NCBI RefSeq assembly: GCF_036365525.1
Contig: NC_090409.1
Coordinates: 38,636,437 to 38,700,436, forward strand
Source of the DNA: Heterodontus francisci
Taxonomy: Eukaryota
DNA length: 64,000 nt
Reading direction: 5' to 3'
Shown here: positions 30,200-53,000 of the stretch, in pieces
Numbering within the stretch: position 1 is the stretch's first letter
Layout: the number at the start of each line of letters is the position of its first letter
Notes under the pieces: model-generated
What the model was told of the DNA's origin: nothing
The model's input: the letters and a program-made list of their open reading frames with translations, nothing else
Database searches by the model: none
Program-made: the position numbers and the translations under genes

Positions 30200-30361
30200 A
30201 ACCACACCTCCCTCTACAGCCACACAGACAGCATATCCGCTTAGTGTATTCACAGCTGAAATATGTCTTGTGAGTATTAACCTGACTTGCAGGCTTGTGT
30301 CAGATTAGTGACTGCTGTGTTCGACCTGTCTCTCTGCAGTGTTTGATACCCAGTCTTCAGG
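30200..30361 (+). other. Candidate 5' non-coding exon of the B7-family gene (start uncertain)
   Basis: Consensus donor CAGG|GTAAGT at 30362 in unique sequence; the ATG exon opens right after an acceptor, so an upstream exon is expected; in-frame TGA upstream means it would be non-coding. Confidence 0.4.
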
Positions 30362-30462
30362 GTAAGTGAGACTCTCCAAGTATTTTAACCACACTGTCTT
30401 TTCGGTAGTTGGCTACCAAAGTTAGACTCACAGTTGTGAACTTTCCTTGTCTGGGTCAGTTC

Positions 30463-33500: not shown

Positions 33501-33961
33501 CTCGTAGAGTTCAGCTGGGCCTCAATGAATCTCTCTCTCTCTCTCTCTCTCTCTGTCGCATCACCTACTCTTGTTTCTCGTCCAATGCCCATGCACATGT
33601 GCATCACTGCATATTGATCAGGAGCAGAGATAATAACTGACATTCCCTACTCCCCTCTGCCCTCCCTTGTGAGCCCAGGGTGAGGAAGAGAGGGGTGATT
33701 GGGGGTGGGGCAGGGTGGAGGAAGGGGAAGCTTTATATCAGCCAGTGGGGCGACCAGAGAACAGGCACTACGATGCCCTTCATGGTCGAATAGCTTAACA
33801 GCATCTCCAGAGGAAAATTCCAGGTTGAGAAAGGCAGCGAAAGCACTGCCGGATGTGGAATTTGGCGACTGGGAAGACTCGTCCAAGAGAGAGCTTTACA
33901 TTAACTGAACCAAGCACTGTCCAAACCCAACATTAACAGACACTTTATCCTCTGTTTTAGG

Positions 33962-34013
33962 ATGAAGACACTATTTCTCAGGCTATTAATGTCAGTACTC
34001 AGTGCTGTAACAG
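33962..34013 (+). CDS. B7-family (ICOS-ligand-like) gene, signal-peptide exon
   Basis: Acceptor TCTGTTTTAG|G, then MKTLFLRLLMSVLSAVT; phase-1 donor G|GTAGGT is in frame with the IgV exon. Confidence 0.8.
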
Positions 34014-34069
34014 GTAGGTGTCTGACATTATCCTGTATTCTTTGCTGACAAGCTCAGAGTGGGGAAGTT

Positions 34070-34520
34070 GCCTGGAGAGACTGGAGAAGCTGGGATTGTT
34101 CTCCTTGGAGCAGAGAAGGTTAAGGGGGAGATTTAATCGAGGTGTTCAGAATCATGAGGGGGTTTTGATGGAGTAAATGAGGAGAAACTGTTCCCAGTGA
34201 CAGGAGGGTCGGTAACCAGAGGGACACAGATTGAGGATAATGGGTAAAAGAACCAGAGGGGGGGAGAGGAGGAGAATTTTTTTGACGCAGTGAGTTGTTG
34301 TGATCTGGAACGCGCTGCCTGAAAGGGCGGTGGAAGCAGATTCAATAGTAACTTTCAAAAGGGGGAATTGGGAGAAACACTGGAACGGGAAAAATTTGCA
34401 GGACGATGGGGGAAAGAGCAGGGGGGGGGAGAGTGGGATTAATTGGATAGATCTTTCAAAGAGCCAGCACAGGGATAATGGGCTGAATGGACTCCTCCTG
34501 TGCTGGATCATTCTATGAAG
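34070..34520 (+). mobile_element. CR1 3' fragment (intronic)
   Basis: LEKLGLFSLEQRR and IWNALPERAVEA motifs. Confidence 0.85.
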
Positions 34521-34651
34521 TGTAAAATCTTGACTGGTCTAGAATGACTATTATGGGATAGCATTGTCAGGGGTGGGGTCAAGGGAAAGAAATATCAGAC
34601 GGGGCGTATGACTGCAAGTTTTTCAGCCCCCTCTCACAAGATGTAACATCC

Positions 34652-35412
34652 TGAGGACAGTAAGAAACTAATTGCTGTGGCAGACACATCTTCAGGACAG
34701 TCAGAGACTAATTGCTGTGGCAGACACATCTTCAGGACAGTAAGAGACTAATTGCTGTGAGATACAGCATAAGGACAGTTACAGACTAATTGCTGTGGCA
34801 GACACATCTTCAGGACAGTCAGAGACTAATTGCTGTGAGACACATCGTCAGGACAGTAAGAGACTAATTGCTGTGAGACACATCTTCAGGACAGTAAGAG
34901 ACTAATTGCTGTGAGATACATCTTCAGGACAGTAAGAGACTAATTGCTGTGAGATACATCTTCAGGACAGTAAGAGACTAATTGCTGTGAGACACATCTT
35001 CAGGACAGTCAGAGACTAATTGCTGTGGCAGACACAGCTTCAGGACAGTCAGAGACTAATTGCTGTGGCAGACACATCTTCAGGACAGTCAGAGACTAAT
35101 TGCTGTGAGACACATCGTCAGGACAGTAAGAGACTAATTGCTGTGAGACACATCTTCAGGACAGTAAGAGACTAATTGCTGTGGCAGACACATCTTTAGG
35201 ACAGTAAGAGACTAATTGCTGTGAGATACAGCACAAGGACAGTCAGAGACTAATTGTGTGGCAGACACAGCTTCAGGACAGTAAGAGACCAATTGCTGTG
35301 AGATACAGCATAAGGGCAGTTAGAGGCTAATTGCTGTGAGACACAGCTTGAGGACAGTTAGAGACTAATTGCTGTGGCAAGCCCGTCTTCAGGACAGTTA
35401 GAGTCTAATTGT
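34652..35412. repeat. 38/40-bp minisatellite (intronic)
   Basis: Unit CAGGACAGTAAGAGACTAATTGCTGTG(GC)AGACACATCTT. Confidence 0.93.
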
Positions 35413-35984
35413 TTTCTTTGTATGGTAGCCCTTTTCACGCTACACCTAACTTCTTTTCCATGGAAACTTGGAGAGGAAGTATCTCTTCTCGTCTCCCCAG
35501 TGCCTGGGCCCACACTGATTAGTGAGGCTTGACCGGCTATTCGGCTATTGGTGCATCACCACTGAGTAAATCCTGTTCTCACCCAATGTCTGTGCACTTG
35601 TATATTGCCAGATATTGATTTGGAGCAGGGACCATGGCTGATTTCCATCCCCACAACCTCTGAACTTTGCGGCACCTTGATAGCGGGGGGATTCAGCGAT
35701 GGTAATGCCGTTGAATGTCAAGGGGAGATGGGTCGTCTCTCTCTCTTTCTCTCTTGTTAGACACAATCTCACAGGCCCACATTTAAGCAGCTAGCATTTG
35801 GCACTCAAGCTTATGCAGCTGTTTTCGATTGATGATTCCTTGGCCGTGTTGTGAGATTATGATGGGATGTAGAAATTCTTTACATCGTCCCACAGGCTTA
35901 GAAATGATAACAATTAAGCTTTCATGCATAATTGAATTCTGGGAGGAAAATGAGCCTCATTTCATCGAATCTGGTGATAATTGT

Positions 35985-36335
35985 GTGGCGGTGACATCAC
36001 TGGACTAGAAAACCAGACTTCTGGGATTGATGCCCTGCAAGATGAATTCCAAATCCTGGGAAACTTAACTAAATAAATCTGGGATGATGTGTGAAACTGT
36101 TGAATTGCAGTAAAAACCCATCTGGTTCGCTAATGTCCTTTAGGGAAGGAAATCTGCCGTCCTTACCTGGTCTGGCCGACATGTGACTCCAGACCCACAG
36201 CGATGTGGTTAACTCTGAACTGCGCTCTGAAATGGCCGAGCAAGACACTCACTTAATGTTCAAGAAGGAGGCTTGTCACCGCCTTCTTGAGGGCAATTTG
36301 GAGATGGGTAATAAATGCTGGCCTCGCCAGCGATA
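35985..36335 (+). mobile_element. SINE sharing its 3' tail with the IYKAQVRS LINE; second copy at 58020-58385 (-)
   Basis: Body GGAAGGAAATCTGCCGTCCTTACCTGGTCTGGCC...; tail GGGCAATT..GATGGG.AATAAATGCTGGCC. Confidence 0.7.
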
Positions 36336-36339
36336 CCCA

Positions 36340-36745
36340 GAAAACAGTCTCTGGGTTTCCCATGGATCCAGCCCCTCAGTTCAGCTTGGTGGGGGGACCT
36401 TACACTGTGGTCTTTCCCCATTGAGCCTTTGCTGCGGCTGCCCCAAGCTTTAGTGCGTCCCTCAGCGCGTAGTCCTGGACCTTGCAATGTGCCAGCCTGC
36501 AACATTCGGTGGTGGACAACTCTTTGCGCTGGAAGACCAGCAAGTTTCGGGCAGACCAAAGGGCGTCTTTCACCGAATTGATGGTCCTCCAGCAGCAGTT
36601 GATGTTTGTCTCGGTGTGCGTCCCTGGGAGCAGCCCGTGGAGCACAGACCCCTGTGTTACAGAGCTGCTCGGGATGAGCCTCGACAAAAACCACTGCATC
36701 TCTTTCCACACCTGCTTTGCGAAGACACATTCCAGGAAGATATCT
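36340..36745 (-). mobile_element. Tx1/L1-type ORF2 C-terminal fragment (different family)
   Basis: ORF 36400-36711 WKEMQWFLSRLIP...KDALWSARNLLVF resembles the region after zf-RVT. Confidence 0.7.
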
Positions 36746-36792
36746 GTACCGTCATTTTATTTTGAGTTTAATTGATTCCTCTTGCCTTGCAG

Positions 36793-37125
36793 TCTCTGAA
36801 TTAAAGGTCACTGGGACCCACAGGGGTGAAATCATCCTGCCATGCAGCAGTAAAGACAGATCTATCACAAGGGCTTACTGGCAGAAACAGACAAGCTCGG
36901 AACCACATGTGTTGAAAGCATTTTGCAAAACTCCACATAATGACTGCGAAAGGATCAGTCCTGCTTACATCAATCGATCAACCTTCACTGGCAATTTACA
37001 GCAGGGAAATTACTCTCTCAAACTCCGTGACCTCACACTCGCAGATGAAGGACATTACTACTGCGTGCTGCAAGGGGAGACGCAATGGATCGACACTGGC
37101 TGTAACATTGAGGTGAAAGTCGTAG
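36793..37125 (+). CDS. B7-family (ICOS-ligand-like) gene, IgV exon
   Basis: TTGCAG| acceptor and G|GTAAG donor, phase 1/1; V-set motifs ILPC, YWQ, YINR, GNYSLKL, DEGHYYC, EVKV. Confidence 0.93.
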
Positions 37126-37174
37126 GTAAGAGAGATTTAAGCCGTGGCTCTTTTTCCTCTAACTGGGGCTGAAA

Positions 37175-37600
37175 GGGTTAAGTTGCCAGGACAGGTTGCA
37201 CAGACTGGGCTTTGTATTCCCCTTGAGTGAAGAAGATTAAGGGGGTGATCGAATTGAGGGGGTCGATAGGGAGAAACCATTTCCTCTGTCGGGGGGAGAG
37301 TCCAGAACAAGGGGGTAGAACCTAAAAATTGGAACCAGCCCATTCAGGGGGTGATGCCAGGAAGCATTTCTTCACACAAAGGGCAGTGGGAATCTGCAAC
37401 TCCCTCCCCCCCCCCCCCCGAGAAAGCTTTCGAGGCCGGAGGGTGAATTGGAAATTTCCAAACTGAGACTGACGGATTTTTGTTGGGTGAGGGGATGAAG
37501 TTTACAGAACCAAGGTGGGGAGATGCCTCCTCTTGTCCCATGGGTCAAGACAGAACAGGGTCGAAGGGCTGAATGGCCCTCCTCCTATTCCTATATACCT
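37175..37600 (+). mobile_element. CR1 3' fragment (intronic)
   Basis: GAAGATTAAGGGGGTGATC and GGGCTGAATGGCC 3' motifs. Confidence 0.75.
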
Positions 37601-37862
37601 TTGTTTCCCCCCCCCACCCCCAGTGAAAGGAGCGAGTGTGCGGCTGCCAAGCGAGGGGGAAGCGCTGGGTGCGACGCCTCGCGCGGTCGAATAGCCCACC
37701 GCCAGCCGGCACTGAGGTGACTTAAAGCCAGGTGCGGGGAAGCTGCCAGAGCTGGGGGAGGACGCCAAACCAGAAGCGGAAGGGGGAGAGGAGGTGATGG
37801 GGGATGCTTTTTACCGGCAGGTCTGACACATGTTAACAGCTCGACTTTCTTTGAATCGGAAG

Positions 37863-38156
37863 CTCTGTACAGTGAACCGAAAATCATCATATCGAGGGAG
37901 GATCTTCGGCTGCACGAAGAGGTCAATCTCACCTGCTCCAGCAGCAGTGGCGACCCAAAGGCAAAAGTACGATGGATCAATCAAACTGACAAAAGTGACT
38001 TTGCAGAAGAGCAAGTGATGACAACACTTGGAAGTGGGGAGCACGGAATATACAATATAACCAGCGTCCTGAGGACCAAAGTCAGTCAGGACTTTATCAT
38101 TTGTCAAATCTTCAACGACATTACAGAAGCAAACAAGACATCGAAACCATTCAACT
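37863..38156 (+). CDS. B7-family (ICOS-ligand-like) gene, IgC exon (alternative in-frame start at 37821)
   Basis: ALYSEPKI..EVNLTCSSSSGDPKAKVRWINQTDKS..GIYNITSVLR..IICQIFN; WINQTDKS parallels recalled ICOSL WINKTDNS; donor T|GTAAGC, phase 1. Confidence 0.9.
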
Positions 38157-38242
38157 GTAAGCATTGGTTGGTTGTCAAATTTGCCTGCAGTTTAATTGAA
38201 CACATTAATCGCAGCAATGTACTGCAGCCCATCAGGGGCATC

Positions 38243-41240
38243 TCTCTGTGGCTCAGTGGGTATGACTGTCTCAGAGTCAAAGGATCATGGCTTTAAGGCC
38301 TATTCCAGAGATTTGAGCCTAAAATCTAGGCCAACTTTTCACAGTGCCGGTACTGAGGGAGTGCCGCACTGTCGGAGGGTCAGTACTGAGGGAGTGCTGC
38401 ATTGTCGGAGGGTCAGTACTGAGGGAGTGCCGCACTGTCAGAGGGTCAGTACTGAGGGAGTGCCGCACTGTCGGAGGGTCAGTACTGAGGGAGTGCTGCA
38501 TTGTCGGAGGGTCAGTACTGAGGGAGCGCCGCACTGTTGGAGGGTCAGCACTGAGGGAGTGCCGCAGTGTCAGAGGGTCAGTACTGAGGTCATGTCACAC
38601 TGTCGGAGGGTCAGTACTGAGGGAGTGCCGCACTGTCAGAGGGTCAGTACTGAGGTCATGTCGCACTGTCGGAGGGTCAGTACTGAGGGAGTGCCGCACT
38701 GTCGGAGGGTCAGTACTGAGGGAGTGCCGCACTGTCGAAGGGTCAGTACTGAGGGAGTGCCGTACTGTCGGAGGGTCAGTACTGAGGGAGTGCCGCACTG
38801 TCAGAGGGTCAGTACTGAGGTCATGTCGCACTGTCGGAGGGTCAGTACTGAGGGAGTGCCGCACTGTCGGAGGGTCAGCACTGAGGGAGTGCCGCAGTGT
38901 CAGAAGATCAGTACTGAGGGAGTGCTGCATTGTCGGAGGGTCAGTACTGAGGGAGCGCCGCACTGTTGGAGGGTCAGCACTGAGGGAGTGCCGCAGTGTC
39001 AGAGGGTCAGTACTGAGGTCATGTCACACTGTCGGAGGGTCAGTACTGAGGGAGTGCCGCACTGTCAGAGGGTCAGTACTGAGGTCATGTCGCACTGTCG
39101 GAGGGTCAGTACTGAGGGAGTGCCGCACTGTCGGAGGGTCAGTACTGAGGGAGTGCCGCACTGTCGAAGGGTCAGTACTGAGGGAGTGCCGTACTGTCGG
39201 AGGGTCAGTACTGAGGGAGTGCCGCACTGTCAGAGGGTCAGTACTGAGGTCATGTCGCACTGTCGGAGGGTCAGTACTGAGGGAGTGCCGCACTGTCGGA
39301 GGGTCAGCACTGAGGGAGTGCCGCAGTGTCAGAAGATCAGTACTGAGGGAGTGCCGCACTGTCGGAGGGTCAGTACTGAGGGAGTGCTGCACTGTCAGGG
39401 GGTCAGTACTGAGGGAGTGCCGTACTGTCGGAGGGTCAGTACTGAGGTCGTGCCGCACTGTCGGAGGGTCAGTACTGAGGGAGTGCCGCACTGTCGTAGG
39501 GTCAGGACTGAGGGAGTGCTGCACTGTCGGAGGGTCAGTACTGAGGGAGTGCTGCACTGTCGGAGGGTCAGGACTGAGGGAGTGCTGCACTGTCGGAGGG
39601 TCAGTACTGAGGTCGTGCCGCACTGTCGGAGGGTCAGTACTGAGGAAGTGCCGCACTGTCGGAGGGTCAGTACTGAGGGAGTGCTGCATTGTCGGAGGGT
39701 CAGTACTGAGGGAGTGCTGCACTGTCGGAGGGTCAGTACTGAGGGAGTGCTGCACTGTCGGAGGGTCAGTACTGAGGTCGTGCCGCACTGTCGGAGGGTC
39801 AGTACTGAGGAAGTGCCGCACTGTCGGAGGGTCAGTACTGAGGGAGTGCTGCATTGTCGGAGGGTCAGTACTGAGGTAGTGTCGCACTGTAGGAGGGTCA
39901 GTACTGAGCGAGTGCCGCACTGTTGTAGGGTCAGTTTTTCAAAAATCATTTCTGGGATGTGGGCGTCGCTGGCCAGGCCAGCATTTATTGCCCATCCCTA
40001 ATTGCCCTTGAGAAGGTGGTGGTGAGCTGCCTTCTTGAACCGCTGCAGTCCATGTGGGGTAGGTACACCCACAGTGCTGTTAGGAAGGGAGTTCCAGGAT
40101 TTTGACCCAGCGACAGTGAAGGAACGGCGATACAGTTCCAAGTCAGGATGGTGTGTGACTTGGAGGGGAACTTGCAGGTGGTGGTGTTCCCATGCATCTG
40201 CTGCCCTTGTCCTTCTAGTTGGTAGAGGTCGCGGGTTTGGAAGGTGCTGTCTAAGGAGTCTTGGTGCATTGCTGCAGTGCATCTTGTAGATGGTACACAC
40301 TGCTGTCACTGTACGTCGGTGGTGGAGGGAGTGAATGTTTGTAGATGGGGTGCCAATCAAGTGGGCTGCTTTGTCCTGGATGGTGTTGAGCTTCTTGAGT
40401 GTTGTTGGAGCTGCACCCATCCAGGCAAGTGGAGAGTATTCCATCACACTCCTGACTTGTGCCTTGTAGATGGTGGACAGGCTTTGGGGTGTCGGGAGCT
40501 GGATCAAAATCCTGGAACTCCCTTCCTAACAGCACTGTGTGTGTACCTACCCCACATGGACTGCAGCGGTTCAAGAAGGCAGCTCACCACCACCTTCTCA
40601 AGGGCAATTAGGGATGGGCAATAAATGCTGGTCTGGCCAGTGACGCCCACATCCCAGAAATGAATTTTGAAAAGTTCCTCTAGTTTTAAAACATAGAATC
40701 AGAGAATGATCCAGCACAGGAGTAGGACATTCGGCCCATCATCCCTGTGCTGGCTCTTCGATAGATCTATCCAATTAGTCCCCACTCTCCCCCCTGCTCT
40801 TTCCCCCATCTCCCTGCAAATCTTCCCCCTTCCAGTATGTCAGAGGGTCAGTACTGAGGGAGTGCTGCACTGTCGGAGGGTCAGTCCTGAGGGAGTGCTG
40901 CACTGTCGGAGGTGCCGTCTTTCAGATGAGACATTAAACCGAGGCCCCCGTCTGCCCTCTCTGGTGGGTGTAAAAGATCCCACGGCCACTATTTGGAGGA
41001 AGAGCGGAGGGGGGGAGTTCTCCCCGGTGTCCTGGGGACAATATTTATCCCTCAACCAACATCACTAAAAAAAACAGAAGATCTGGGTCATTATCACATT
41101 GCTGTTTGTGGGATCTTGCGGTGCACAAATTGGCTGCCGCATTTCCTGCATTACAACAGTGATGACACTTCAAAAAAAAGGACCTTATTGTCTGTGAGGC
41201 TCTTTGGGACGTCCTGAGGAGGCGAAAGGCGCTGGAGAAA
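38243..41240 (+). mobile_element. Deu-domain SINE with ~48 internal 33-bp units (38349-39935), interrupted by LINE pieces; body resumes at 40840
   Basis: A-box TGGCTCAGTGG at 38249, then the array; Deu body 40910-41235. Confidence 0.85.
39936..40675. mobile_element. LINE 3' fragment (-) plus an inverted copy of its last ~175 bp (+)
   Basis: 39936-40110 is near the reverse complement of 40498-40675. Confidence 0.88.
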
Positions 41241-41401
41241 TGAGAGTTATGGAAGTGTCAGGCGCTTGCCTTTGCTCAGGGATTGTGTTGTGTGACTCCA
41301 GTCCTCTGCTGCCCCCTGTTGGGATCCCCACGTGTTGCACACACAGTAACACAGTGAGTGAGGCTCAGGCCTCGAACAGTCACAGAATCCGCAACGACCG
41401 A

Positions 41402-42215
41402 ACCCTCCCTATCTCTGTAACCTCCTCCAGCCCCGACAACCCTCCCTATCTCTGTAACCTCCTCCAGCCCCGACAACCCTCCCTATCTCTGTAACCTCCT
41501 CCAGCCCCTACAACCCTCCCTATCTCTGTAACCTCCTCCAGCCCCTACAACCCTCCCTATCTCTGTAACCTCCTCCAGCCCCTACAACCCTCCCTATCTC
41601 TGTAACCTCCTCCAGCCCCTACAACCCTCCCTATCTCTGTAACCTCCTCCAGCTCCTACAACCCTCCCTATCGCTGTAACCTCCTCCAGCCCCTACACCC
41701 CTCCCTATCTCTGTAACCTCCTCCAGCCCCTACGACCCTCCCTATCTCTGTAACCTCCTCCAGTCCCTACAACCCTCCCTATCTCTGTAACCTCCTCCAG
41801 CCCCTACACCCCTCCCTATCTCTGTAACCTCCTCCAGCCCCTACACCCCTCCCTATCTCTGTAACCTCCTCCAGCACCTACAACCCTCCCTATCTCTGTA
41901 ACCTCCTCCAGCTCCTACAACCCTCCTTCTCGCTGTAACCTCCTCCAGCCCCTACAACCCTCCGAGATCTCTGCGCTCCCTCCAATTCCGCTCTCTTGCC
42001 CATCACTCCACCATTGGCGGCCGTGCCTTCAGCTGCCTGGGGGCCCTAAGCTCTGGAATTCCCTCCCTAAATCTCTCCGCCTCTCTCTCTCCTCCTTTCA
42101 GACACTCCTTAAAAACCGACCTCTTTGACCGAGCTGTTAGTCGCCAGTCCCTAATATCTCCTGATGTGGTTTGTCGGACTTACGTCCCTGTTTCATTACA
42201 TTAAAGGCACTAGAT
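41402..42215 (+). mobile_element. L2 LINE 3' end with internal 37-bp minisatellite (~15 units, 41402-41960)
   Basis: Unit ACCCTCCCTATCTCTGTAACCTCCTCCAGCCCCTACA followed by GGRAFSCLG..KLWNSLP-encoding L2 end. Confidence 0.82.
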
Positions 42216-42392
42216 CAATGCAGGCTGTTGTTGATCGGATCGATATTGGTGCTTCTGAACTCAGAGGAGAGGGAGAAATCCCCAAAACCAGATAAGGTGT
42301 TAATTGACTGTGAAGCACAGACACTGCAAGCACTAACATAAAAAAACACATAAAAAAAAGTGGGTAAGCACATTGGAAAGAAACTAAACAAA

Positions 42393-43520
42393 CTCACCGC
42401 TTCCCCTCCCTCCCAGAACCGTGACAGGGTTCCCCTTGTCCTCACTTTCCACCCCATCAGCCTCCATATCCAAAGGATCATCCTTCGCCATTTCCACCAC
42501 CTCCAGCGTGATGCCACTTCCAAACGCATCTTCCCCTCCCTTCCCCTGTCAGCATTCCGAAGGGATCGTTCCCTCCGCGACACCCTGGTCCACTCCTCCA
42601 TTACCCCCACCACCTCGTCCCCGTCCCATGGCACCTTACCCTGCAATTGCAGGAGGTGTAATACCTGCCCATTTACCTCCTCTCTCCTCACTATCCCAGG
42701 CCCCAAACACTCCTTTCAGGTGAAGCAGCGATTTACTTGTACTTCTTTCAATGTAGTATACTGTATTCGCTGCTCACAATGTGGTCTCCTCTACACTGGG
42801 GAGACCAAGCGCAGACTGGGTGACCGCTTTGCGGAACACCTCCGCTCAGTCCTAAAGCATGACCCTGAGCTTCCGGTCGTTGGCCATTTCAACACTCCCC
42901 CCCTGCTCTCATGCTCACACCTCTGTCCTGGGATTGCTGCAGTGTTCCAGTGAACATCAACGCAAGCTCGAGGAACAGCATCTCATTTACCGATTCGGCA
43001 CACTACAGCCTGCCGGACTGAACATTGAGTTCAATCATTTCAGAGCATGCTGGGACCCCCATTATATGCTTTGTTATTTTTTTATTTTTCCTTTCTTATT
43101 TGATTATTTTATTTTAGGTTTTTCAGTTTGTTTAGTTTGTTTGCACTGTGCTTACCCACTGTTTTGGTTTTATTAATGTGGTTTTTTATGGGTGTGCTTG
43201 GAGTACTCGGTACTTTACAGTCAATTCACACCCTCTCTGCACTAACACTTTGTCTTTCACCACACTATTAACATATTGTTTTCCTTTGTTCCATGACCTT
43301 CTGGTCGGTTATTCTCTGTGACCTTGTCCTAGCTACACCTTCTCCTTTGTTATCTCTTGCCCCACCCCCACTCTACTTGCTTAAAACCTTTGACATTTCT
43401 AATATTTGCCAGTTCTGAAGAAGGGTCACTGACCCGAAACGTTAACTCTGCTTCTCTCTCCGCAGATGCTGCCAGACCTGCTGAGTGTTTCCAGCATCTG
43501 CAGCATTTTGCTTTTATTTT
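42393..43520 (+). mobile_element. Penelope-like element 3' part (GIY-YIG endonuclease plus terminal region)
   Basis: NVVYCIRCSQCGLLYTGETKRRLGDRFAEH; CNCRRCNTC linker; GLNIE end. Confidence 0.9.
43411..43447 (+). ncRNA. Minimal hammerhead ribozyme motif (Penelope-associated)
   Basis: AGTT-CTGAAGA-A-GGGTC-ACT-GACCC-GAAA-CG-TT-AACT: stem I AGTT/AACT, stem II GGGTC/GACCC, palindromic ACGT in place of stem III. Confidence 0.75.
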
Positions 43521-43699
43521 TTCGGTGATGATTGACCCTCCACTCTCTCCCCTCACTCCCCCGGACAGGCTGCACAGGATGACATGTGCTGCCCTCCGTG
43601 TCGAACAGCTCTGTCATCTGTCCACGGGGCGAAATGCTTCAGGGGACAGAAGCGGACTGGAATCCAGCTGAGGCAGCGGAGAGGAGGCCAGGGAAATTT

Positions 43700-44165
43700 T
43701 GGAAAGAATCATCAGGTCTTATATCACAGGAGGAGTCCATTCGGTCCATCGTGCCTGTGTTAGCTCTTTGAAAGATCGATCCAATTAGTCCCCACTCTCC
43801 CCGCACCCCCTGCTCTTTCCCCCATCGCCCTGCAAATTTTTCCCCTTCCAGTATTTCTCCGATTCCCCCTTTTGAAAGTTACTATTGAATCTGCTTCCAC
43901 CGCCCTTTCAGGCAGCGCGTTCCAGATCACAACAACTCACTGCGTCAAAAAAATTCTCCTCATCTCCCCCTCTGGTTCTTTTACCGATTATCCTCAATCT
44001 GTGTCCCTCTGGTTACCGACCCTCCTGTCACTGGGAACAGTTTCTCCTCATTTACTCCATCAAAACCCCCTCATGATTTTGAACACCTCGATTAAATCTC
44101 CCCCTTAACCTTCTCTGCTCTGAGGAGAACAATCCCAGCTTCTCCCAGTCTCTCCAGGTAACTTA
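43700..44165 (-). mobile_element. CR1 3' fragment
   Basis: Reverse-complement relative of 34070-34520. Confidence 0.85.
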
Positions 44166-44579
44166 CCTGTAATCCCTATGGAAACAGGGATATTATGCGT
44201 GTCTTGTGTGTTTATATTTATGAAGGAGGGAAAGGTGGGGCTGATTTAACAGTGAAAGGATTAGGGACAGAGAGAGAGAGAAAACCAAGCCAAAATCGAA
44301 AGGGTTTAGCCTGTTGTTCCTTTAAAAAATGTCCCATTTTGACAAAAGTGGGAGGACTTCAACCGGCGTTAATATTCTGTGTCCCGGGGCATGGGTCCCC
44401 CTCTGTCCAGTGCCCCCTTGTATCTGATTTTTGATTGGTCAAAGATTGTCCACTGTTGTCTCGTCCTTGCAGGGCCTGTGCTGGGATGGAAGAAAGAAGA
44501 AACCTGCATTTAAGAGGCGCCTTCCACCCTTAAGGCTAACCATTGGCTGTGAAGCGCCAATTAAATACTCTCTGAATTC

Positions 44580-45292
44580 TCGTTACTGTTGTAATGCAGG
44601 AAACGCAACAGTCAATTTGCGCACAGCAAGATCCCACAAACAGCGATGTTGATAATGACCCAGATCATCTGGTTTTTTTTTAGCGATGTTGTTTGAGGGA
44701 TAAATATTGTCCCCAGGACACCGGGGAGAACTCCCCACCCCCCCCGCCCCCCACCACTGCTCTTCTTCCAAATAGTGGCCGTGGGATCTTTTACACCCAC
44801 CTGAGAGGGCAGACAGGGGCCTCGGTTTAATGTCTCATCTGAAAGACGGTACCTCCGACAGTGCAGCACTCCCTCAGTACTGACCCTCTTACAGTGCGGC
44901 ACTCCCTCAGTACTGACCCTCTTACAGTGCAGCACTCCCTCAGTACTGACCCTCCAACAGCGCGGCACTCCCTCAGTACTGACCCTCCGACAGTGCAGCA
45001 CTCCCTCAGTACTGACCCTCCGACAGTGCAGCACTCCCTCAGTACTGACCCTCCAACAGTGCAGCACTCCCTCAGTACTGACCCTCCAACAGTGCAGCAC
45101 TCCCTCAGTACTGACCCTCCGACAGTGCAGCACTCCCTCAGTACTGACCCTCCGACAGTGCAGCACTCCCTTAGTACTGGCACTCAGAGTGCCAGCCTGA
45201 ATTTTGTGCTCAAGTCTCTCGAGTGGGGACTCGGGCCCCGAAACCTCCTCTCTCAGAGGCGACAGTGCTCGACCCGCTGAGCCACGGCTGAC
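44580..45292 (-). mobile_element. Deu-domain SINE with ~10 internal 33-bp units
   Basis: Minus-strand head GCCGTGGCTCAGCGGG at ~45290; array 44853-45178; Deu body 44580-44850. Confidence 0.87.
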
Positions 45293-45393
45293 ACAAGGGA
45301 GGGGGAAGGGTGGTGAAAAGGTTGAGATGGATGAACGAGAAAAAGGTTTACTTGCTGACTGTTTTCTTTCTCCCTCTCTCGTTTCTCTTTCAG

Positions 45394-45503
45394 TGTTCCA
45401 GCGTGCAACGCCAGGACTCAGAACTTCGAGTGCGGACAACGAGAAAACTGCGCCCATTGTTTGTTACATTCTAATCGTCGGTCTCTCACTGTTTTACAAG
45501 TAA
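45394..45503 (+). CDS. B7-family (ICOS-ligand-like) gene, terminal exon: stalk plus hydrophobic C-terminus
   Basis: Long polypyrimidine tract and CAG| acceptor; in phase with IgC; LFQRATPGLRTSSADNEKTAPIVCYILIVGLSLFYK-stop. Confidence 0.78.
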
Positions 45504-45746
45504 ACACTTTTGATTTTCTCATGTAATCTGAATGGCTCTCTGCTTTTGACAGTGAGAGGGCACAGACTTGTGCATGTTGCATCTCTTCTCAAGTTCAGCT
45601 GCCCATCCATTGGGGCTGGTGCTAAGGTAATCGGAATATTATCCTCCGCGGTGATGAGAAGGTATGAGGGGTATGGGTTACGACTGCTGGCTCCTAACCC
45701 TTTGACCACCCCCCCACCCCCGCAACTCAAAAACCCCCTCCCGCAA

Positions 45747-45752
45747 AATAAA
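45747..45752 (+). terminator. Candidate polyadenylation signal AATAAA (alternative ATTAAA at 46144)
   Basis: First AATAAA seen downstream of the stop at 45503. Confidence 0.35.
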
Positions 45753-46189
45753 AACGTTAACAGGAGCGGAATTCAACCTCAACCCAATTGTGTTAAAGTC
45801 TTGGGTCGGGTCCCATTGCGGGCGCCAGGCCAGGTCGAGGGATGGAGAGCCAGCCAGTGAATGCTGGTGACTTCCGACCTTGCAGCCCAGCAACAGCCAG
45901 TCGCCAGCGTCTCTCGTCGCCCGCCGTCCCGCCACCCCAGGTTGGCACGCAGCCACGTTTGACCTCAGGATGTCTGCCGACTGAAAACGCTGCCTGCACC
46001 ACGAGCAATGCCACGGGGCTGCTGATGCTCGTCAAGCACAAGGAAGGGAATGGAGGAGATTGTTGTCAAAATGGAGGCTGGAAGGGATTTTACTGGGATT
46101 TTTCTACCTGAATATGTATCATTTATTGTGTCTGATTAATTATATTAAAGGAATGACTTGGAAATTCTGGTTGGCTATTTCAAATATCC

Positions 46190-46945
46190 TGCCTCAACCC
46201 ATCCCCTTCTGAAAATCTCATCCATTCCTTTGTTACCTCCAGACTAAACCCTTTCAACGCTCTCCAGTCCGGATTTACAACTCCCCCCGCCACCTCACAC
46301 CCTCCATCAACTTCAGCCCATCCCAAACCCTGCCACCCGCACCGTGTCCTAACTCACACCCAGTCCCGTTCACCCTTCACCCCCTGTTACTCGCTGACCG
46401 ACACTGGCTCCCAGTCAGGTAACACCTCCCATTTTAAAATTCAAATCCTCGTTTTCAAATCCCTCCATGACCTCCTCGCCCCCCTTCCCTATCTCTGTAA
46501 CCTCCTCCAGCCCCGACAACCCTCCCTATCTCTGTAACCTCCTCCAGCCCCTACAACCCTCCCTATCTCTAAAACCTCCTCCGGCCCCTACAACCCTCCC
46601 TATCTCTGTAACCTCCTCCAGCCCCTACAACCCTCCGAGATCTCTGCCCTCCCTCCAATTCCGGCCTCTTGACCATCCCCCGATTCCCATCGCTCCACCA
46701 TTGGCGGCCGTGCCTTCAGCTGCCTGGGGGCCCTAAGCTCTGGAATTCCCTCCCTAAACCTCTCCGCCTCTTTCTCTCCTCCTTTAAGACGCTCCTTAAA
46801 AACCGACCTCTTTGACCGATATTTTGGTTGCCGGTCCCTAATATCTCCTAATGTGGCTCAGGGTCTAACTTGGTTTGATAACACTTCTGTGAAGCACCTT
46901 AGGACAGTCTGCTACATTAAAGGTGCTATATAAATGCAGGTTATT
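46190..46945 (+). mobile_element. L2 LINE 3' fragment with ~4 copies of the 37-bp unit
   Basis: HWLPV..FKI-encoding region; GGTGCTATATAAATGCA tail. Confidence 0.82.
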
Positions 46946-47349: not shown

Positions 47350-47977
47350 GGCTGCTCTCTGATTTGGGAGCCTGAGTGCATCAACGAGGTGCAGCTGACT
47401 GTTGCTGTGTGTACAGGTTGGAGGCTGCAGGCTGTGTGACTGCTGCAAGAGGGAGAGACTGAGACTGAAAGAAGGGTTTTTCCACATTTTCAACAAAGGA
47501 AGGAAGGCAGAGAACTGGAAGCTCTTTTGTGAGTTTGCTTGGTACTGAAAGTCTTTTTCATTGATTGTTGGGGGTGGGGAAAGAAGAGACCTGAAGACCT
47601 TGGGTGGGGCTGTATTGTTCAATAGGGAGCTCCTGTGTTTAACATCTTTGGATAGGGAGCTCCCTCCCCACCCCAACTATTAAGCCTGGGACAGCTGGAG
47701 CTGCCCAGGTGAAGAGACTTATTATCTGAACATTGAAGGAGGCGTGTGCCTGGGCAGCTTACAGCTGACCCAGGTGAAGACATCACCCCACTCTCCCAAC
47801 TGGAAGACCAGCTACAAGACTTGTGCAATACTAACAAAGACTGATTCCTCTTGGCCTTCCTCTCCCTCAGCCTCTTTCCCCTGTGCTACATCCTTTAAGT
47901 GTTACATTTTTGATTTATTGTATTTGCTCTTTTCTTTTTTTTTGCTCTCAACAAAGTGCCTGTAACTCTTCTACCCC

Positions 47978-49989
47978 ATGACTTCTCAGTCCTCTCCGGT
48001 GGCGGGGCCCTCCTCTGCTGCAGCAGCTGCGACAGCTGCTCCTGTGGCCCCGTCACCATTTAAAATCTTAACATCAAAGCATGGGGTGAAGAGTTACACC
48101 CATCCTAATATGACTATTGAGGCTTGTGTTAAGGCAATGGCCGTGGTTGTCGGCCCCTCGGCCATTGTTGCAGCCTCAAAGATGGATGGGAAGGCTGTGT
48201 TCTTCCTGAAGACCGAGCGGGCTGTGTCCCTCGCCCTAAGTACGGGGCTCACAGTGGGTGGGATTTTCCTGCCAGTGGACCCTCTGGGGGCCACTGCACA
48301 TCGGGTAATCTTGTCGAACGTCCCACCCTTCATTCCTGATGAGCTCCTCCTCCCCCACCAACACCTTCTGGGGGAGGTGAGGTCAGGGATCACCCCAGTC
48401 CCGCTCGGTCTTCGGGAGCACAGCCTCCGACATGTCTACTCCTTCTGTCGCCAGCTATTCATGCAGCTGGCGCAGGAGGGGGTCTTGGAGGGCCACTTCG
48501 GTATAGAGTTTCAGGGGACGGCCTACCGCGACTTCTGGACCTCGGATGGAGCGCGGTGCCACGTCTGCAAGGGGGTGGGGCATGTTCGTAAGAATTGCCC
48601 CAACCTCCCGGCCGCCAGCTCCACCTCGGCGGCCCAGAATGGTTCCACAGCACCTCCTCCCACTCCCCAACACATCCAATAAACACCGCTCAGTCGGTTC
48701 CGGAGGCTGTGGTTTTCACAGCCTCCAGCGGGGAGGGGAGCGTCTGTCCGAGCGGAAGGAAGACGCGGGGAAAAAAGAAACATCATGAGGCGCGTCCCCT
48801 GGACACTTTGACTCAACCCAAGCCTGAGCTCAGCCCAAAGCCCATTCCCATGGAATCCACCTGTCCCAGGGCTGGGCTCAGGCCCAGGGGGACTAAAAAG
48901 GAAAAAAAGGGTGCGGAGGCTTCTGATGACATGGAGGTCTCTGAGTCTCCGCGCCCAAGTGCGAAAAAGAGGAGAAGGCACCCCTCCACAGAAATAACAC
49001 AGGGCCCTGAGGTGCAGGGCCCATCTGTTGGAGGGGAGCTGCCTCCTGTTTCTGGTCCTCAGGTACCCCCTACCGCCACCACCAAGGCTACAAAGTCCGG
49101 GCAGGTGCTCCCTATTCCTCAGGATGGAGGGGAGGGGATGGCCCCGGTACATGAGGCCCCTCCTGAAGGAGTAAGTGGGGCCCTGCTTGTGGTGGGGGAG
49201 CCTGGGGAAGCCGCCCATTCTGCCACTGCTACTGGGTCGGGTGTCCTGAATGAAGGGGAGGGCGAGGACCCAGAGGGTCGGGCCTCCCAGCCGGAGTCCA
49301 CCACCAACCAGGAGACACCCGACCCAGTTATAACTGAGAATGCTGCCCCATCTGCTGGGCCTGTGGGTGCTGGCGGAGCGGGAGATAGCCTCCTCCCTCC
49401 GCCTCCAGTCTCGGCTGCGGCTGGTTTCCCGGAGTCGGGAACTTCTGTCTCCCCTGGACCACTCATTGCCCTGGGGACGGAGGTGGAGGGGGGTCCTGAA
49501 CCGCTGGTGCCTACAGGCTCCAGTTTCACAATAGAACCCAGAGATCCTGGGGGTGGGATCGTGACGGAGGCGGGACCAGCTGGCGCGGCCGGGACGTCCG
49601 CCCCACAGTGTGTGGTGGATGTGTCGGCCGCTGGCGGTGACGACCCGGAGGAGGATGGGGATTCGGTGCGGGGCACGGAGGATGATCTTGATTCCATCGC
49701 CAGTGAGGTGGTGGAGTCCCTCGTGCCTCCCACCGAATCTCCTCTCATCCCCACGGCGGAACTCCAGGATTTCCTCGCGGCTTGCAGAGGTTGCCGCAAT
49801 AAAGTTCAGCTGGCCCTCGACCGTTGGTCAAATCTGGCGCTGATCATACAGTCCGTCCGTGCCGCCCTTAAGATAGCGGGCAAGCGCGCGGACGTGAAAC
49901 TGGTTGAGAGGTGCCGTTTTAATGTGTTCCTCAATGGGTTGCTGGGGGAGTGGAGGGCCAGGTGCACTTCCACTCCCTCCTCAGAGTGA
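47978..49989 (+). pseudogene. Tx1 ORF1 (gag-like, CCHC knuckle), one frameshift near 48665
   Basis: ORFs 47978-48682 and 48595-49989; CHVCKGVGHVRKNC; Pro/Glu/Gly-rich C-terminal half. Confidence 0.88.
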
Positions 49990-50021
49990 GGTGTTTGTGA
50001 CGGGTTTTAATTACCTTTGAC

Positions 50022-53000
50022 ATGAAGATAACCATAGCCAGCCTCAACATCAACGGCAACAGAGGGGCTCACCGCAGATTTCACAAGCTCTCAGTCCTTA
50101 GGGAAGGGAGATACGCGGTGAGCTTTCTGCAGGAAACCCACACCGTTCCGGGAGACGAAGCCACCTGGCTCCTGGAGTGGCAGGGTGGGGTCTACATGAG
50201 TCACCTCACCCCTATTTCTAGTGGGGTGGCTATCTTGTTGGTCCCGACCTTTCAGCCGGAGATCTTGGGGGTCAAGGAGCTAGTGCCGGGCCGCTTGCTC
50301 CACCTCGCCGTTCGCCTGGGTAGCGTGCCGCTCCACTTTGTGAACGTGTACGCGCCCAGGCCCGGCGCGTTGCAAGCGCGCTTCTTTGAAGAAGTGTCCG
50401 CTCTCTTGAGCTCCATCGATAGCGGCGAGTGCATCATCCTCGGGGGGGATTTTAACTGCACCCTCGAGGTGGGGGATCGCTCCGGTCCCCAGCGCAGCCA
50501 AGCGTCGGTGGAGAAGTTGAGGGGACTGATCAGCTCCCTGAACTTGGTGGACGTCTGGCGGAATCTCCATCCCGACTCCAGCGCCTTCACGTGGAGGTCT
50601 GGAGGAGGGGGGTTGCGAATCGACCGCCTCTACATTTCGCAGGCGTACGTCTCCCGCGTTTCGGCAGCCTCCATGCGGCTGGTGCCGTGCTCGGACCACC
50701 GCCTGGTGTGGGCGGAGTTTACTCCGCTCCGCACGCGGGCGGGGTCCGCGTACTGGCACTTTAACAACCGGCTGCTGGAGGACGTGCGATTTCGGGACTC
50801 GTTCTGTCGATTCTGGGCCGACTGGAGAAGGAAGCAGGGGGGCTTCCCCTCCTTGAGGCCATGGTGGGATGTGGGCAAGACTCACATCCGCGTCTTCTGT
50901 CAGGAGTACGCGAAGGGGTCGGCCAAGAGGCGGGAAGCCGAGATCGGGCGCCTTGAGAGGGATGTGCTCGACTTGGAATCCCGCCTCGGTCATGCCGTCG
51001 TGGACCCGGCTCTGTGGCAGGCGTACAAAGAGAAGAAGGGCGCGCTGAGGGACCTGCAGCTCATAGGGTCCCGAGGCGCGTACGTGAGGTCGCGGATCCA
51101 GATCCTGGAAGATTTGGACCGTGCCTCACCCTTCTTCTACTCACTGGAAAAATGGCGGGGGGTCCGTAAGCAGCTCATCGAGCTGCTGGCCAACGACGGA
51201 TCCTCCATCACGGATCCGGAGGGAATGGGCCTCCTGGTCCGGACTTATTTCAGTGCGTTGTTCTCTCCGGATCCGTCCAGCGAGGATGCGCGCAGAGTTT
51301 TGTGGGAGGACCTGCCGCAGGTCAGCCCGGAGGGCGCCGAAGGATTGGAGGCTCCGCTCACGTTGGCGGAGCTGACTGGCGCCCTCCACCAGCTCTCGAG
51401 GGGCAAATCCCCAGGGCTGGATGGGTTGACTGTGGAGTTCCTCAGGGCGTTCTGGGACGTCCTGGGGGACGATTACGCGCGGGTCCTGGGGGAAAGCCTG
51501 GCGACCGGGGAGATGCCCCTCTCGTGGCGCAGGGCGGTCATCGTCCTGCTGCCGGAGAGGGGCGATCTCCGCCTGCTTAAAAACTGGCGTCCGGTCTCCC
51601 TCCTCAGCACGGATTATAAGATCTTTGCCCGGGCTATGTCGACCCGCCTGTGCTCTGTGCTGGCCCACATGATCCACCCCGACCAGTCCTACGCGGTCCC
51701 GGGCCGGTCCATCCAGGACAACATCCACCTGGTCCGGGACCTGATCCATCTTTCCCAGAGGACTGGTCAGTCGATCGCCTTTCTCTCCCTCGATCAGGAG
51801 AAGGCGTTCGACAGGGTGGATCACGATTACCTTTTCGAGACTCTGCGCGCTTTCGGACTCGGGCCGCATTTTGTGGCCCGGGTTCGACTTTTATATGCCG
51901 CCGCAGAGTGTCTAGTCAATGTTAACGGGTCCTTGACGGCGCCCCTTCGATTTGGGAGAGGAGTGCGTCAGGGGTGCCCCATGTCCGGCCAATTGTATAC
52001 CATCTGCGTGGAGCCCTTCCTGTGCCTGCTCCGCAGGGGGTTGACGGGATTGGCTCTGCGCGAGCCGGCCATGCGGGTCGTCCTCTCGGCTTACGCCGAC
52101 GACGTGCTCCTCGCAATCACAGATCCCGTTGACTTGCGGAGGATGCGCGACTGCCAGCAGACCTTTTCTGCCGCGTCCTCCGCGAGGATCAATTGGGAGA
52201 ATTGTTCCGGACTCCTGGTTGGTCAGTGGCGGGTGGACTCCCTGCCGGAGGAGATGACACCTTTTGCGTGGAGCACCACGCACCTCCTCTATCTGGGAGT
52301 CCACCTTAGCCCCGCTGAGGAAGCCTGGCCGGCAAACTGGCAGGAGTTGGAGGCGAAAGTCACCGCTCGGCTGGGGCGCTGGACAGGACTGCTCCGAGTG
52401 CTTTCCAACAGGGGCCGAGCGTTGGTCATAAACCAACTGGTGGCCTCCATGCTGTGGTACCGGTTGGTCACTTTGGACCCGCCCCCTGTATTTGCCACCA
52501 AGATCCAGAAGAAACTCGTCGATTTCTTCTGGGGCAAGAGGAAACACTGGGTCTCTGCCGCGGTCCTGAGTCTCCCGATCGAGGAGAGCGGTCAGTCGCT
52601 GGTGTGCGTCCGCACCCAAGCTGCGACTCTCCTCCTTCGGACCCTGCAGAGATACCTGTACGTCGAGCGTCCTCCCAGATGGTGTGCGCTGGCGACGTAT
52701 TTTTTCCGCCAGTGTCACTGCCTTCAAGCTCCCGGTGGAGTCCGTTAGCCACGCCTCTCTGAGGGAGTTGCCTGTTTTTTACCGGGATCTATTCCGAGTC
52801 TGGAACATGGTCGCCTCCAGTCAGGGCGCTCCCCCGCCGGCGGAGGTGAGCGCCTCGGCTGTCCGGGCGGCCGACTCCGGGGACGGTCCGGCGGGCGGAG
52901 GAGTAGCCGAAACCCCCGGGACGCCCCTCACTGCGGGTGGCGAGGGGGCTCGGGAGTGCTGAGCGATCCCAGCGGAGCTGACCCCCGCTCAGCCGGAACT

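Follow-up and report, generated by a model that had tools for sequence, protein, structure and literature searches.

The horn shark Heterodontus francisci carries a four-exon gene of the B7 family that is expressed with a tailless last exon, belongs to a clade of tailless proteins from sharks and rays, and has a tailed neighbour in tandem. We consider it moderately probable that this elasmobranch-wide clade represents a GPI-anchored paralogue from an ICOSL-like gene cluster, which would signal to T cells in the forward direction only.

Gene structure and transcripts

The gene occupies positions 33962-45503 (+ strand) of the window, the whole 64-kb stretch of DNA that was analyzed. Its four coding exons have GT-AG ends, are joined in phases 1/1/1, and encode 262 residues and a stop. 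The protein is letter-for-letter equal to RefSeq XP_067874473.1/XP_067874474.1, named 'CD276 antigen homolog [Heterodontus francisci]'. The features of the gene are as follows.

33962-34013 (52 nt), + strand: coding exon 1, with start codon ATG at 33962, residues 1-17 as the putative signal peptide, and a phase-1 donor
36793-37125 (333 nt), + strand: exon 2, IgV domain, residues 18-128
37863-38156 (294 nt), + strand: exon 3, CD80-like IgC domain, residues 129-226
45394-45503 (110 nt), + strand: coding part of exon 4, with a short stalk, a GPI-signal-like C-terminus and TAA at 45501-45503
45426-45434, + strand: candidate omega, omega+1 and omega+2 residues (S238-S239-A240) from a rule-based scan, with 24 residues after omega
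45456-45497, + strand: terminal hydrophobic run I248-Y261 (14 residues; 16 with A246-P247), followed by one Lys
45500-45501, + strand: cryptic donor GT (CAA/GTAAAC, 6/9 consensus letters), unused in the contigs seen
45504-46160, + strand: 3'UTR, with ATTAAA at 46144-46149 as the likely poly(A) signal

The signal peptide was assigned by eye; residues 1-17 are signal-peptide-like, and this character is conserved across the alignment of the tailless clade. The basking-shark gene model lacks the segment. An acceptor-like AG at 33959-33960, just before exon 1, makes an upstream 5'UTR exon possible. Exon 2 matches a V-set domain (Pfam E 2.6e-11) and exon 3 a CD80-like C2-set domain (Pfam E 2.8e-8), such that signal peptide, IgV and CD80-like IgC each lie on their own phase-1 exon, as is the layout of the B7 family. 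The IgV domain contains the canonical pair Cys35/Cys108 and the additional Cys62, Cys69 and Cys121, and the IgC domain contains Cys153/Cys209 and four N-glycosylation sequons. Exon joining, Pfam domains and RefSeq identity thus bear out the first-pass annotation, made from the sequence alone, in its description of four phase-1-joined exons giving signal peptide, IgV, IgC and stalk. Near 37821, upstream of exon 3, lies a second acceptor in the same frame, which was discarded since the RefSeq model uses 37863.

Transcripts were examined in contigs from four runs guessed to be RNA, which represent one sample of one study. Each of the four runs has a contig whose alignment begins precisely at 45394 and whose loose end equals the 30 nt at the 3' end of exon 3 (38127-38156), and contigs pass the stop codon into the 3'UTR, ending at 46160, 46155, 46149 (three pieces) and 46066. 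Cleavage of the transcript would lie near 46160; the contigs contain no poly(A) tail. The intron bins at 45243-45371 have no contig cover, and the contigs of the four runs contain no joint or loose end at the 45500 donor. The apparent lack of a cytoplasmic tail, proposed earlier with the proviso that the AA/GTAAAC donor at 45500 might add one, therefore holds in the transcripts seen, where exon 3 is spliced to 45394 and the stop is read through. The exon 3-4 junction is the sole splice directly seen in the contigs; exons 1-3 are supported by the RefSeq match and by upstream contig portions of 780, 802 and 782 nt, compared with 679 nt of coding sequence. Contigs lose rare variants, and a tailed isoform that is minor or from another tissue is thus possible. 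Downstream of exon 3, 108 pyrimidine-rich acceptors in phase 1 were screened for an alternative membrane-span exon. Four of them give a hydrophobic segment, and exon 4 accounts for one of these. The other three (44158, 47871 and 61311) are weak and unsupported, and none combines a long run with a basic tail.

C-terminus of tailless and tailed proteins

The horn-shark protein ends with S238-S239-A240, a polar spacer, the hydrophobic run I248-Y261, which begins at omega+10, and a terminal K262. The S-S-A triplet, polar spacer, hydrophobic stretch of ~16 residues and final lysine described earlier are all present in the sequence, and the proposed GPI-signal type of layout stands, as a layout, for the whole tailless clade. 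The last 40 residues were compared between nine tailless proteins of the clade and 15 tailed relatives. All nine tailless proteins end 0-5 residues after a hydrophobic run of 13-18 residues, whereas all 15 tailed relatives continue for 14-69 residues beyond runs of 15-26 residues. The six positions after the run contain 0-1 basic residues in 9/9 tailless proteins and 1-4 in 15/15 tailed proteins. The best 13-mer hydropathy is 1.66-2.91 in the tailless and 2.73-4.07 in the tailed set (Mann-Whitney p 2.7e-4), with four of the nine tailless proteins at about 2.0 or less (lowest 1.66). The horn-shark value of 2.78 lies inside the tailed range, and a short membrane span is therefore possible for this member. 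Pro, Ser, Lys, Gln or His is found inside several runs of the clade (Mustelus, Stegostoma); hydrophobic runs interrupted by polar or charged residues are more in keeping with a GPI signal than with a membrane span.

The S-S-A triplet, offered earlier as a hint of GPI attachment, is present but weakly specific, since a small-residue triplet under a loose rule occurs in 8/9 tailless and 9/15 tailed proteins. The rule was tightened after this version failed to separate the two sets, and the post hoc rule (triplet 5-13 residues before the run) gives 8/9 versus 5/15 (Fisher p 0.013); the tailless protein of Hypanus lacks the triplet. Mean pairwise identity within the clade is 0.16 for stalk plus signal, compared with 0.39 for IgV and 0.35 for IgC; the C-terminus keeps its character while its sequence diverges. 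A tenth tailless protein, from the basking shark, has the same type of C-terminal end.

Relationship to other B7 proteins

The best solved matches of the horn-shark protein, by profile and by fold, are members of the B7 family. Per V+C unit the best profile match is ICOSL (120.7 bits), followed by two-Ig CD276 (101), CD86 (88), CD80 (80) and PD-L1 (77 bits). For exon 3 taken by itself, the highest-scoring match is CD276. ICOSL is also the best fold match (Foldseek E 1.9e-18), and superposes with a Z of 19.4 and an rmsd of 2.6-3.0 over about 200 residues, a margin of 1.0 Z over CD276. B7-H4 (4gos, an IgV-only chain) is absent from the best 60 profile matches and the best 50 fold matches listed, and was recovered by a search with the lungfish protein.

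In a careful tree of 35 rows, nine tailless proteins from sharks and rays group as a single clade with support of 100/100. The full set of 61 rows was subjected to a quick tree only, and the careful tree leaves out 26 of them: extra butyrophilin-like and other units from the outgroup side, near-duplicates, rows with long branches, and P0102/P0040, which were placed near the tailless clade without resolution. The clade lies in a group (96/95) with ICOSL, tailed shark paralogues and ICOSL-like proteins of fish, and CD276 rows, which have a different strand-C motif, fall outside it. The tree gives no firm branching order inside the group. In AU tests, p is 0.18 for the tailless clade with tetrapod ICOSL, 0.41 with the tailed shark paralogues, 0.058 with CD276 and 0.19 with lungfish P0164, none of these groupings being rejected. 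The phylogeny suggested earlier thus places the clade loosely, in a group that includes ICOSL, in a tree whose rows do not include CD80, CD86 or VTCN1 (B7-H4). The label 'ICOSL-like' likewise stands as far as ICOSL is the best solved match; because tailed shark genes with an ICOSL-type Y-x-G-V tail exist (P0129 and P0077), as does a tandem tailed paralogue, the horn-shark gene is probably a paralogue rather than shark ICOSL proper.

This tailed B7 paralogue starts 10.8 kb downstream of the tailless gene on the same strand.

56962-57005, + strand: first coding exon of the tailed paralogue XP_067874476.1 (P0157, isoform X1 model), 15/15 residues identical, donor GT at 57006

Beyond this exon the gene continues past the end of the window, in which nothing was seen beside the tailless gene apart from this tandem B7 paralogue and repeats. 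Tailless and tailed genes are also found on contigs of the same size in sawfish (10,237,845 bp) and basking shark (282,690 bp). Together these data point towards an expanded ICOSL-like cluster in sharks, which would comprise two or more tailed lineages and a conserved tailless one.

Eight of the ten tailless-clade records, from other species and the horn shark itself, are automatic gene models, and a single orthologous group is spread over the automatically assigned names CD276-like, CD86-like and ICOSL-like. Word-index homologue searches returned one row with the exon, seven with the alignment and two with the white-shark protein; members in chimaeras or bony fish may thus exist. The elephant-shark supplement gave no match for ICOSL, B7-H2, CD86 or CD276. 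The literature searched contains no description of a tailless elasmobranch B7 clade; Flajnik et al. 2012 and Zhang et al. 2009, which lie outside its coverage, may bear on novelty.

Candidate receptor-binding face

All nine clade members contain the strand-C motif R44-x-Y46-W47-Q48. The ICOS-contact set compared comprised Y51, Y53, Q55, L114, L116, Q118, G121 and F122 of ICOSL. Y53 and Q55, which are among the receptor-binding strand-C residues of ICOSL according to PMC7545189, align with the invariant Y46 and Q48 of the tailless clade. The position of Y51 is occupied by an invariant Arg and that of L114 by Val, and the FG-loop contacts are not kept. PMC11599192 describes two or three CD28/CTLA4-like receptors without assigned ligands in cartilaginous fish, and reports that no ICOS orthologue was found there. 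The tailless and tailed lineages of the cluster provide named candidate ligands for these chondrichthyan receptors.

Proposed function and alternative explanations

The tailless clade would stem from a tandem duplication within a cluster of ICOSL-like genes and would predate the shark-ray split, which took place roughly 270-300 million years ago. The N-terminal signal would direct the protein into the ER, and GPI transamidase would cut at or near Ser238, remove a 24-residue hydrophobic pro-peptide and attach a GPI anchor, so that the IgV-IgC ectodomain is displayed on the outer leaflet and no part of the protein reaches into the cytosol; judged from sequence, we regard entry, cleavage, attachment and display as quite probable. 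The GFCC' face of the IgV domain could then bind at least one of the CD28/CTLA4-like receptors that cartilaginous fish possess, two or three in number, and give lymphocytes a forward-only signal, without the tail-dependent reverse signalling of ICOSL, a role that the tailed paralogues may retain. To receptor binding and forward-only signalling we give about an even chance. Release of the ligand by phospholipase is possible and is the least supported step of the proposal. More tentatively, elasmobranchs may have retained a dedicated GPI-anchored B7 gene beside tailed ICOSL-like paralogues since before the shark-ray split, the ligand side of costimulation being shared between two kinds of molecule. 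The tailed ligand would act in both directions, and the GPI-anchored one, clustered in rafts and releasable by phospholipase, would be a forward-only ligand or decoy that tunes the three unassigned CD28/CTLA4-like receptors; this layer of T-cell control would be absent in bony vertebrates, or replaced there by protease shedding of ICOSL.

The C-terminus could instead belong to a type I membrane protein with an uncleaved short membrane span and a one-residue tail, as was later proposed for B7-H4 (PMC2760136). The horn-shark run of 14-16 residues, with its hydropathy of 2.78 and terminal Lys, would suit such a span, and AlphaFold places a helix at 251-257 (pLDDT under 50). Across the clade, however, the runs of 13-18 residues are shorter than the 15-26 of tailed relatives, four of nine members have low hydropathy, some runs contain polar or charged residues, and no member has a basic cluster after the run; we judge this arrangement unlikely. 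A mainly soluble decoy, which is briefly GPI-linked and then shed, or is secreted, and which blocks CD28-family receptors instead of stimulating them, would be compatible with a tailless protein, with the zebra-shark isoform model P0017, which stops right after IgC, and with the decoy action of soluble B7-H4 in mice described in PMC2760136. P0017 is a single gene model, though, and a terminal hydrophobic run, needless in a protein that is simply secreted, is kept in all nine members and the basking-shark protein, which renders the decoy quite unlikely.

The clade might also be the shark lineage of B7-H4, CD276 or CD80/CD86, a relabelling compatible with a GPI anchor. RefSeq names its members CD276-like, ICOS-ligand-like or CD86-like, the AU test retains a grouping with CD276, an Atlas feature match points to a VTCN1 cluster (0.94), and R-x-Y-W-Q also resembles strand C of CD80. 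Against this stand the exclusion of the CD276 rows from the 96/95 group and their other strand-C motif, the lead of ICOSL over CD86 and CD80 by 33-41 bits, the absence of 4gos from the best 60 profile matches listed although the lungfish protein finds it, and the linkage in basking shark to a gene of the Y-x-G-V-tailed subclade. Another family is accordingly an improbable assignment. A missed tail exon or a decaying pseudogene is very improbable: a GT donor does overlap the last codon and the RNA contigs come from one sample, but this artefact is largely refuted by read-through into the 3'UTR in all four runs, an intact frame equal to RefSeq, the same C-terminal end in ten elasmobranch records, and the lack, among the 108 downstream acceptors, of any giving a long run and a basic tail.

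Comparison with known systems

If the GPI anchor is real, the gene would plainly exemplify a B7 gene whose GPI linkage is built in and has been kept throughout sharks and rays, the mammalian example, B7-H4, being disputed. Given the ordinary B7 fold, it is comparative immunology that benefits, and no new mechanism is implied. ICOS ligand (ICOSLG, B7-H2, CD275) shares with the horn-shark protein the signal-IgV-IgC-stalk layout, the strand-C Tyr and Gln, and a W-I-N-x-T-D motif in IgC. In contrast to ICOSL, the horn-shark protein has an Arg at the Y51 position and an extra Cys pair (62/69) in IgV, and lacks the 20-25-residue membrane span, the basic juxtamembrane residues and the Ser/Tyr tail motif; the latter two carry reverse signalling in mammalian ICOSL, according to PMC8597029. 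CD276 (B7-H3), whose name RefSeq uses, is the second-best match per V+C unit and the best for exon 3 alone, but its rows stand apart in the tree at 96/95 (AU p 0.058) and differ in strand C. CD276 has a membrane span and a tail.

B7-H4 (VTCN1, B7S1) is likewise a tailless B7 protein, with a disputed anchor: it was reported to be partly PI-PLC sensitive (PMC3817299), and was called GPI-anchored first and transmembrane later (PMC2760136). Unlike ICOSL, B7-H4 is not among the top matches listed for the horn-shark protein, and the taillessness of the two is likely a convergence. For rainbow trout CD80/86, a splice form predicted to be GPI-anchored was reportedly described by Zhang et al. in 2009. 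It is thus another fish B7 with a predicted GPI-anchored form, but is reported to arise by alternative splicing from a gene for a transmembrane protein, in a single teleost lineage, whereas the shark form is a dedicated gene across sharks and rays, in which the only last exon observed is GPI-type. Paired GPI-linked and transmembrane forms are known elsewhere in the immunoglobulin superfamily, as in CEACAM5/6 beside CEACAM1, CD58, and CD16a/b. In these cases, too, one ectodomain family comes in a GPI-type version next to a version with a tail; they are young mammalian or primate events, whereas the shark pair is common to sharks and rays.

Gene structure and transcript evidence

The tailless gene comprises four coding exons, joined in phase 1, that together encode 262 residues followed by a stop:

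33962-34013, + strand, coding exon 1
36793-37125, + strand, coding exon 2, V-set domain
37863-38156, + strand, coding exon 3, CD80-like C2-set domain
45394-45503, + strand, coding exon 4

A search with exon 2 returned a single protein, a Heterodontus francisci CD276 antigen homolog (262 aa, 100% identity) that represents two RefSeq records on a 44,089,062-bp contig and is exactly the product of the four-exon model of the first-pass annotation, which is thereby borne out. The C-terminal layout described there is also present in this protein: S238-S239-A240 is followed by a polar spacer, then by the 14 hydrophobic residues of I248-Y261 and a single Lys. The Cys62/Cys69 pair is typical of the clade described below. 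Cys121 (exon 2, horn-shark protein P0004), a G-strand cysteine, lacks an evident partner in the horn-shark and white-shark proteins and, judged from sequence, might form a disulfide-linked dimer; catshark and zebra shark have an additional N-terminal cysteine that could pair with its equivalent.

Expression was assessed in four runs guessed to be RNA, which contain 0.57-0.67 of the words of 45300-46450. Contigs aligned to 45200-46470 start exactly at 45394 in all four runs and carry the final 30 nt of exon 3 as their loose end. The last exon is thus spliced to exon 3, and the contigs continue past its stop. No joint or loose end was found in the contigs of any run at 45500, the cryptic donor overlapping the last codon through which a cytoplasmic tail might have been added. 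The contigs end at 46160, 46155, 46149 and 46066, adjacent to an ATTAAA at 46144, and coverage in intron bins was zero in the four runs. In three runs the upstream part of the contig measures 780-802 nt, which by length only fits the 679 nt of exons 1-3 plus a 5'UTR of about 100-120 nt. No convincing alternative membrane-span exon was seen among 108 acceptors scanned after exon 3. A minor tailed isoform may nevertheless exist beyond these transcripts, since all four runs derive from one sample of unspecified tissue and contigs lose rare forms. The tailless end is a real, expressed and conserved feature.

A C>T change at 45479 in three of the four runs is synonymous (Val255) and probably allelic. 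A short acceptor-to-GTAAGT stretch at 30340-30368 (+), seen by eye just 5' of an N gap, may serve one of the two RefSeq transcripts as an upstream 5'UTR exon.

A conserved tailless clade

A protein search over 1.84 billion representatives gave 1,280 matches. Among the best 150, the best single-unit matches were from white shark, smooth-hound, cloudy catshark, zebra shark, sawfish, stingray and electric ray, with one additional record, at 26-43% identity to the horn-shark protein. The nine proteins form one clade in a 35-row tree (support 100/100). In all nine, the hydrophobic run spans 13-18 residues, the protein ends 0-5 residues later, and at most one basic residue follows; in the 15 tailed relatives the run is 15-26 residues long, with 1-4 basic residues behind it and 14-69 residues between it and the C-terminus. 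Apart from the horn-shark junction and the additional record, whose entire frame lies on a 1,093-nt contig, the members are automatic gene models. A basking-shark protein, 80% identical to the white-shark member and outside these counts, has the same tailless end. Identity within the clade is 0.39 in IgV, 0.35 in IgC and 0.16 in stalk plus signal; the C-terminal end is conserved in character, not in sequence. GPI signals usually keep character rather than sequence.

No published description of the clade was found in the literature searched, which left most subscription journals uncovered, and the accessible portions of PMC12151841, PMC9245511, PMC6795676, PMC13262535 and PMC3964593 do not mention it; an earlier mention in print is possible. 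Lungfish P0164 (XP_043936239.1), which falls on the CD276/PD-L1/B7-H4 side of the tree, is also a B7 with almost no tail, and the tail may have been lost repeatedly among B7 proteins.

Placement within the B7 family

The clade profile scores highest against ICOS ligand (120.7 bits per V+C unit), followed by two-domain CD276 (101 and 99), CD86 (88), CD80 (80) and PD-L1 (77); four-domain CD276 scores 196 bits, equal to two units of about 97 each. ICOS ligand is also the best Foldseek match to the AlphaFold model of the horn-shark protein (mean pLDDT 79.6), and the best by VIA-align (Z 19.4, rmsd 2.6-3.0, about 200 residues; CD276 Z 18.4). The ICOSL-like label proposed from the sequence therefore stands by profile and fold, but exon 3 by itself scores best with CD276, and the AU test rejects none of the unions tried: p values are 0.058 for the clade with CD276, 0.41 with the shark tailed group, 0.18 with tetrapod ICOSL and 0.19 with the lungfish protein.

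In the 35-row tree, a group with 96/95 support unites the clade with tetrapod ICOSL, six further shark/ray proteins, of which four have a membrane span and tail and two are truncated, and fish proteins with ICOSL as their best profile match; CD276, the lungfish protein and butyrophilins fall outside, and branching inside is not resolved. Because the AU test rejects no union, the rows do not include CD80, CD86 or B7-H4, and the profile of the shark tailed group scores similarly with CD276 (151) and ICOSL (144), "ICOSL-group" is the best label, short of proven orthology.

Five proteins of gar, coelacanth and other fish (P0114, P0079, P0127, P0110 and P0093; alignment A3) match ICOS ligand best, at 150 bits against at most 122 per unit. 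One carries the name butyrophilin-like protein 10; from their sequences, they are likely under-annotated fish ICOSL-like genes.

Membrane attachment

The horn-shark protein would enter the ER, be cleaved at or near Ser238 and receive a GPI anchor, a course we consider quite probable; the anchored protein would then present its IgV face to lymphocytes. Eight of nine clade members, versus five of 15 tailed controls, have a small-residue triplet 5-13 residues ahead of the run (p 0.013), weak evidence since this rule was refined after a looser version gave 8/9 versus 9/15. Counting against a GPI anchor, the horn-shark run reaches a 13-residue hydropathy (2.78) on a par with the least hydrophobic spans of tailed proteins (from 2.73), the stingray protein has no such triplet, and one zebra-shark isoform model ends after IgC. 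Zhang and colleagues are reported to have described, in 2009, a trout CD80/86 splice form of GPI type. The known tailless B7 is B7-H4: one account has it partly sensitive to PI-PLC (PMC3817299), another has it transmembrane (PMC2760136).

Receptor face and signalling

ICOSL contacts ICOS through strand-C Y51, Y53 and Q55 and F/FG residues, according to the available text of PMC7545189. The 53 and 55 positions are Tyr and Gln in all nine clade members, the Y51 position is an invariant Arg, and the ICOSL FG-loop residues are not kept in the alignment. Since many tailed relatives also have the strand-C motif, it marks the group and not a receptor. Two or three CD28/CTLA4-like genes are known from cartilaginous fish, in which no ICOS has been recognised (PMC11599192); we put at about even the chance that these receptors are the partners of the clade. 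Reverse signalling has been ascribed to ICOSL (excerpts of PMC12750674 and PMC8597029); having no tail, the tailless protein could not signal in this way. It may stimulate, inhibit or, once shed, act as a decoy.

Neighbouring paralogues and the rest of the window

A tailed paralogue (XP_067874476.1), whose records lie on a contig of the same size, begins 10.8 kb beyond the observed 3' end on the same strand:

56962-57005 (span given to 57007), + strand, first coding exon of the tailed paralogue, 15/15 residues matching

This exon ends in phase 2 and joins a G-ATG exon start, mirroring the acceptor ahead of the tailless-gene ATG (33959-33962), which suggests a common exon layout of the duplicated genes. 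Tailless and tailed genes are both on 10,237,845-bp contigs in sawfish and 282,690-bp contigs in basking shark, linkage being judged from equal sizes, and on separate contigs in smooth-hound. The basking-shark neighbour falls in a subclade whose complete members have Y-x-G-V tails; these resemble the tails of reptile and amphibian ICOSL and fit the basic and Ser/Tyr motif that is conserved in the tails of mammalian ICOSL (PMC8597029). On this evidence sharks appear to carry three or more ICOSL-like lineages, one of them tailless and two tailed. P0129 (epaulette shark), P0077 (smooth-hound) and P0037 (basking shark) carry CD276-homolog annotations; the complete proteins among them, two in number, have the ICOSL-type Y-x-G-V motif and are the best candidates for shark ICOSL proper.

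The remainder of the window consists of repeats and retrotransposon remains:

47966-53744, + strand, largely intact non-LTR retrotransposon between the two B7 genes, with ORF1-like frames followed by the next feature
50001-52748, + strand, 915-aa endonuclease and reverse-transcriptase frame
23468-24393 and 36400-36756, - strand, fragments of the same family
34646-35411, 38350-39935, 41401-41963, 44852-45179 and 46486-46636, tandem arrays of 33-38-bp units filling introns and flank

Judged by eye, the retrotransposon family is L1/Tx1-like.
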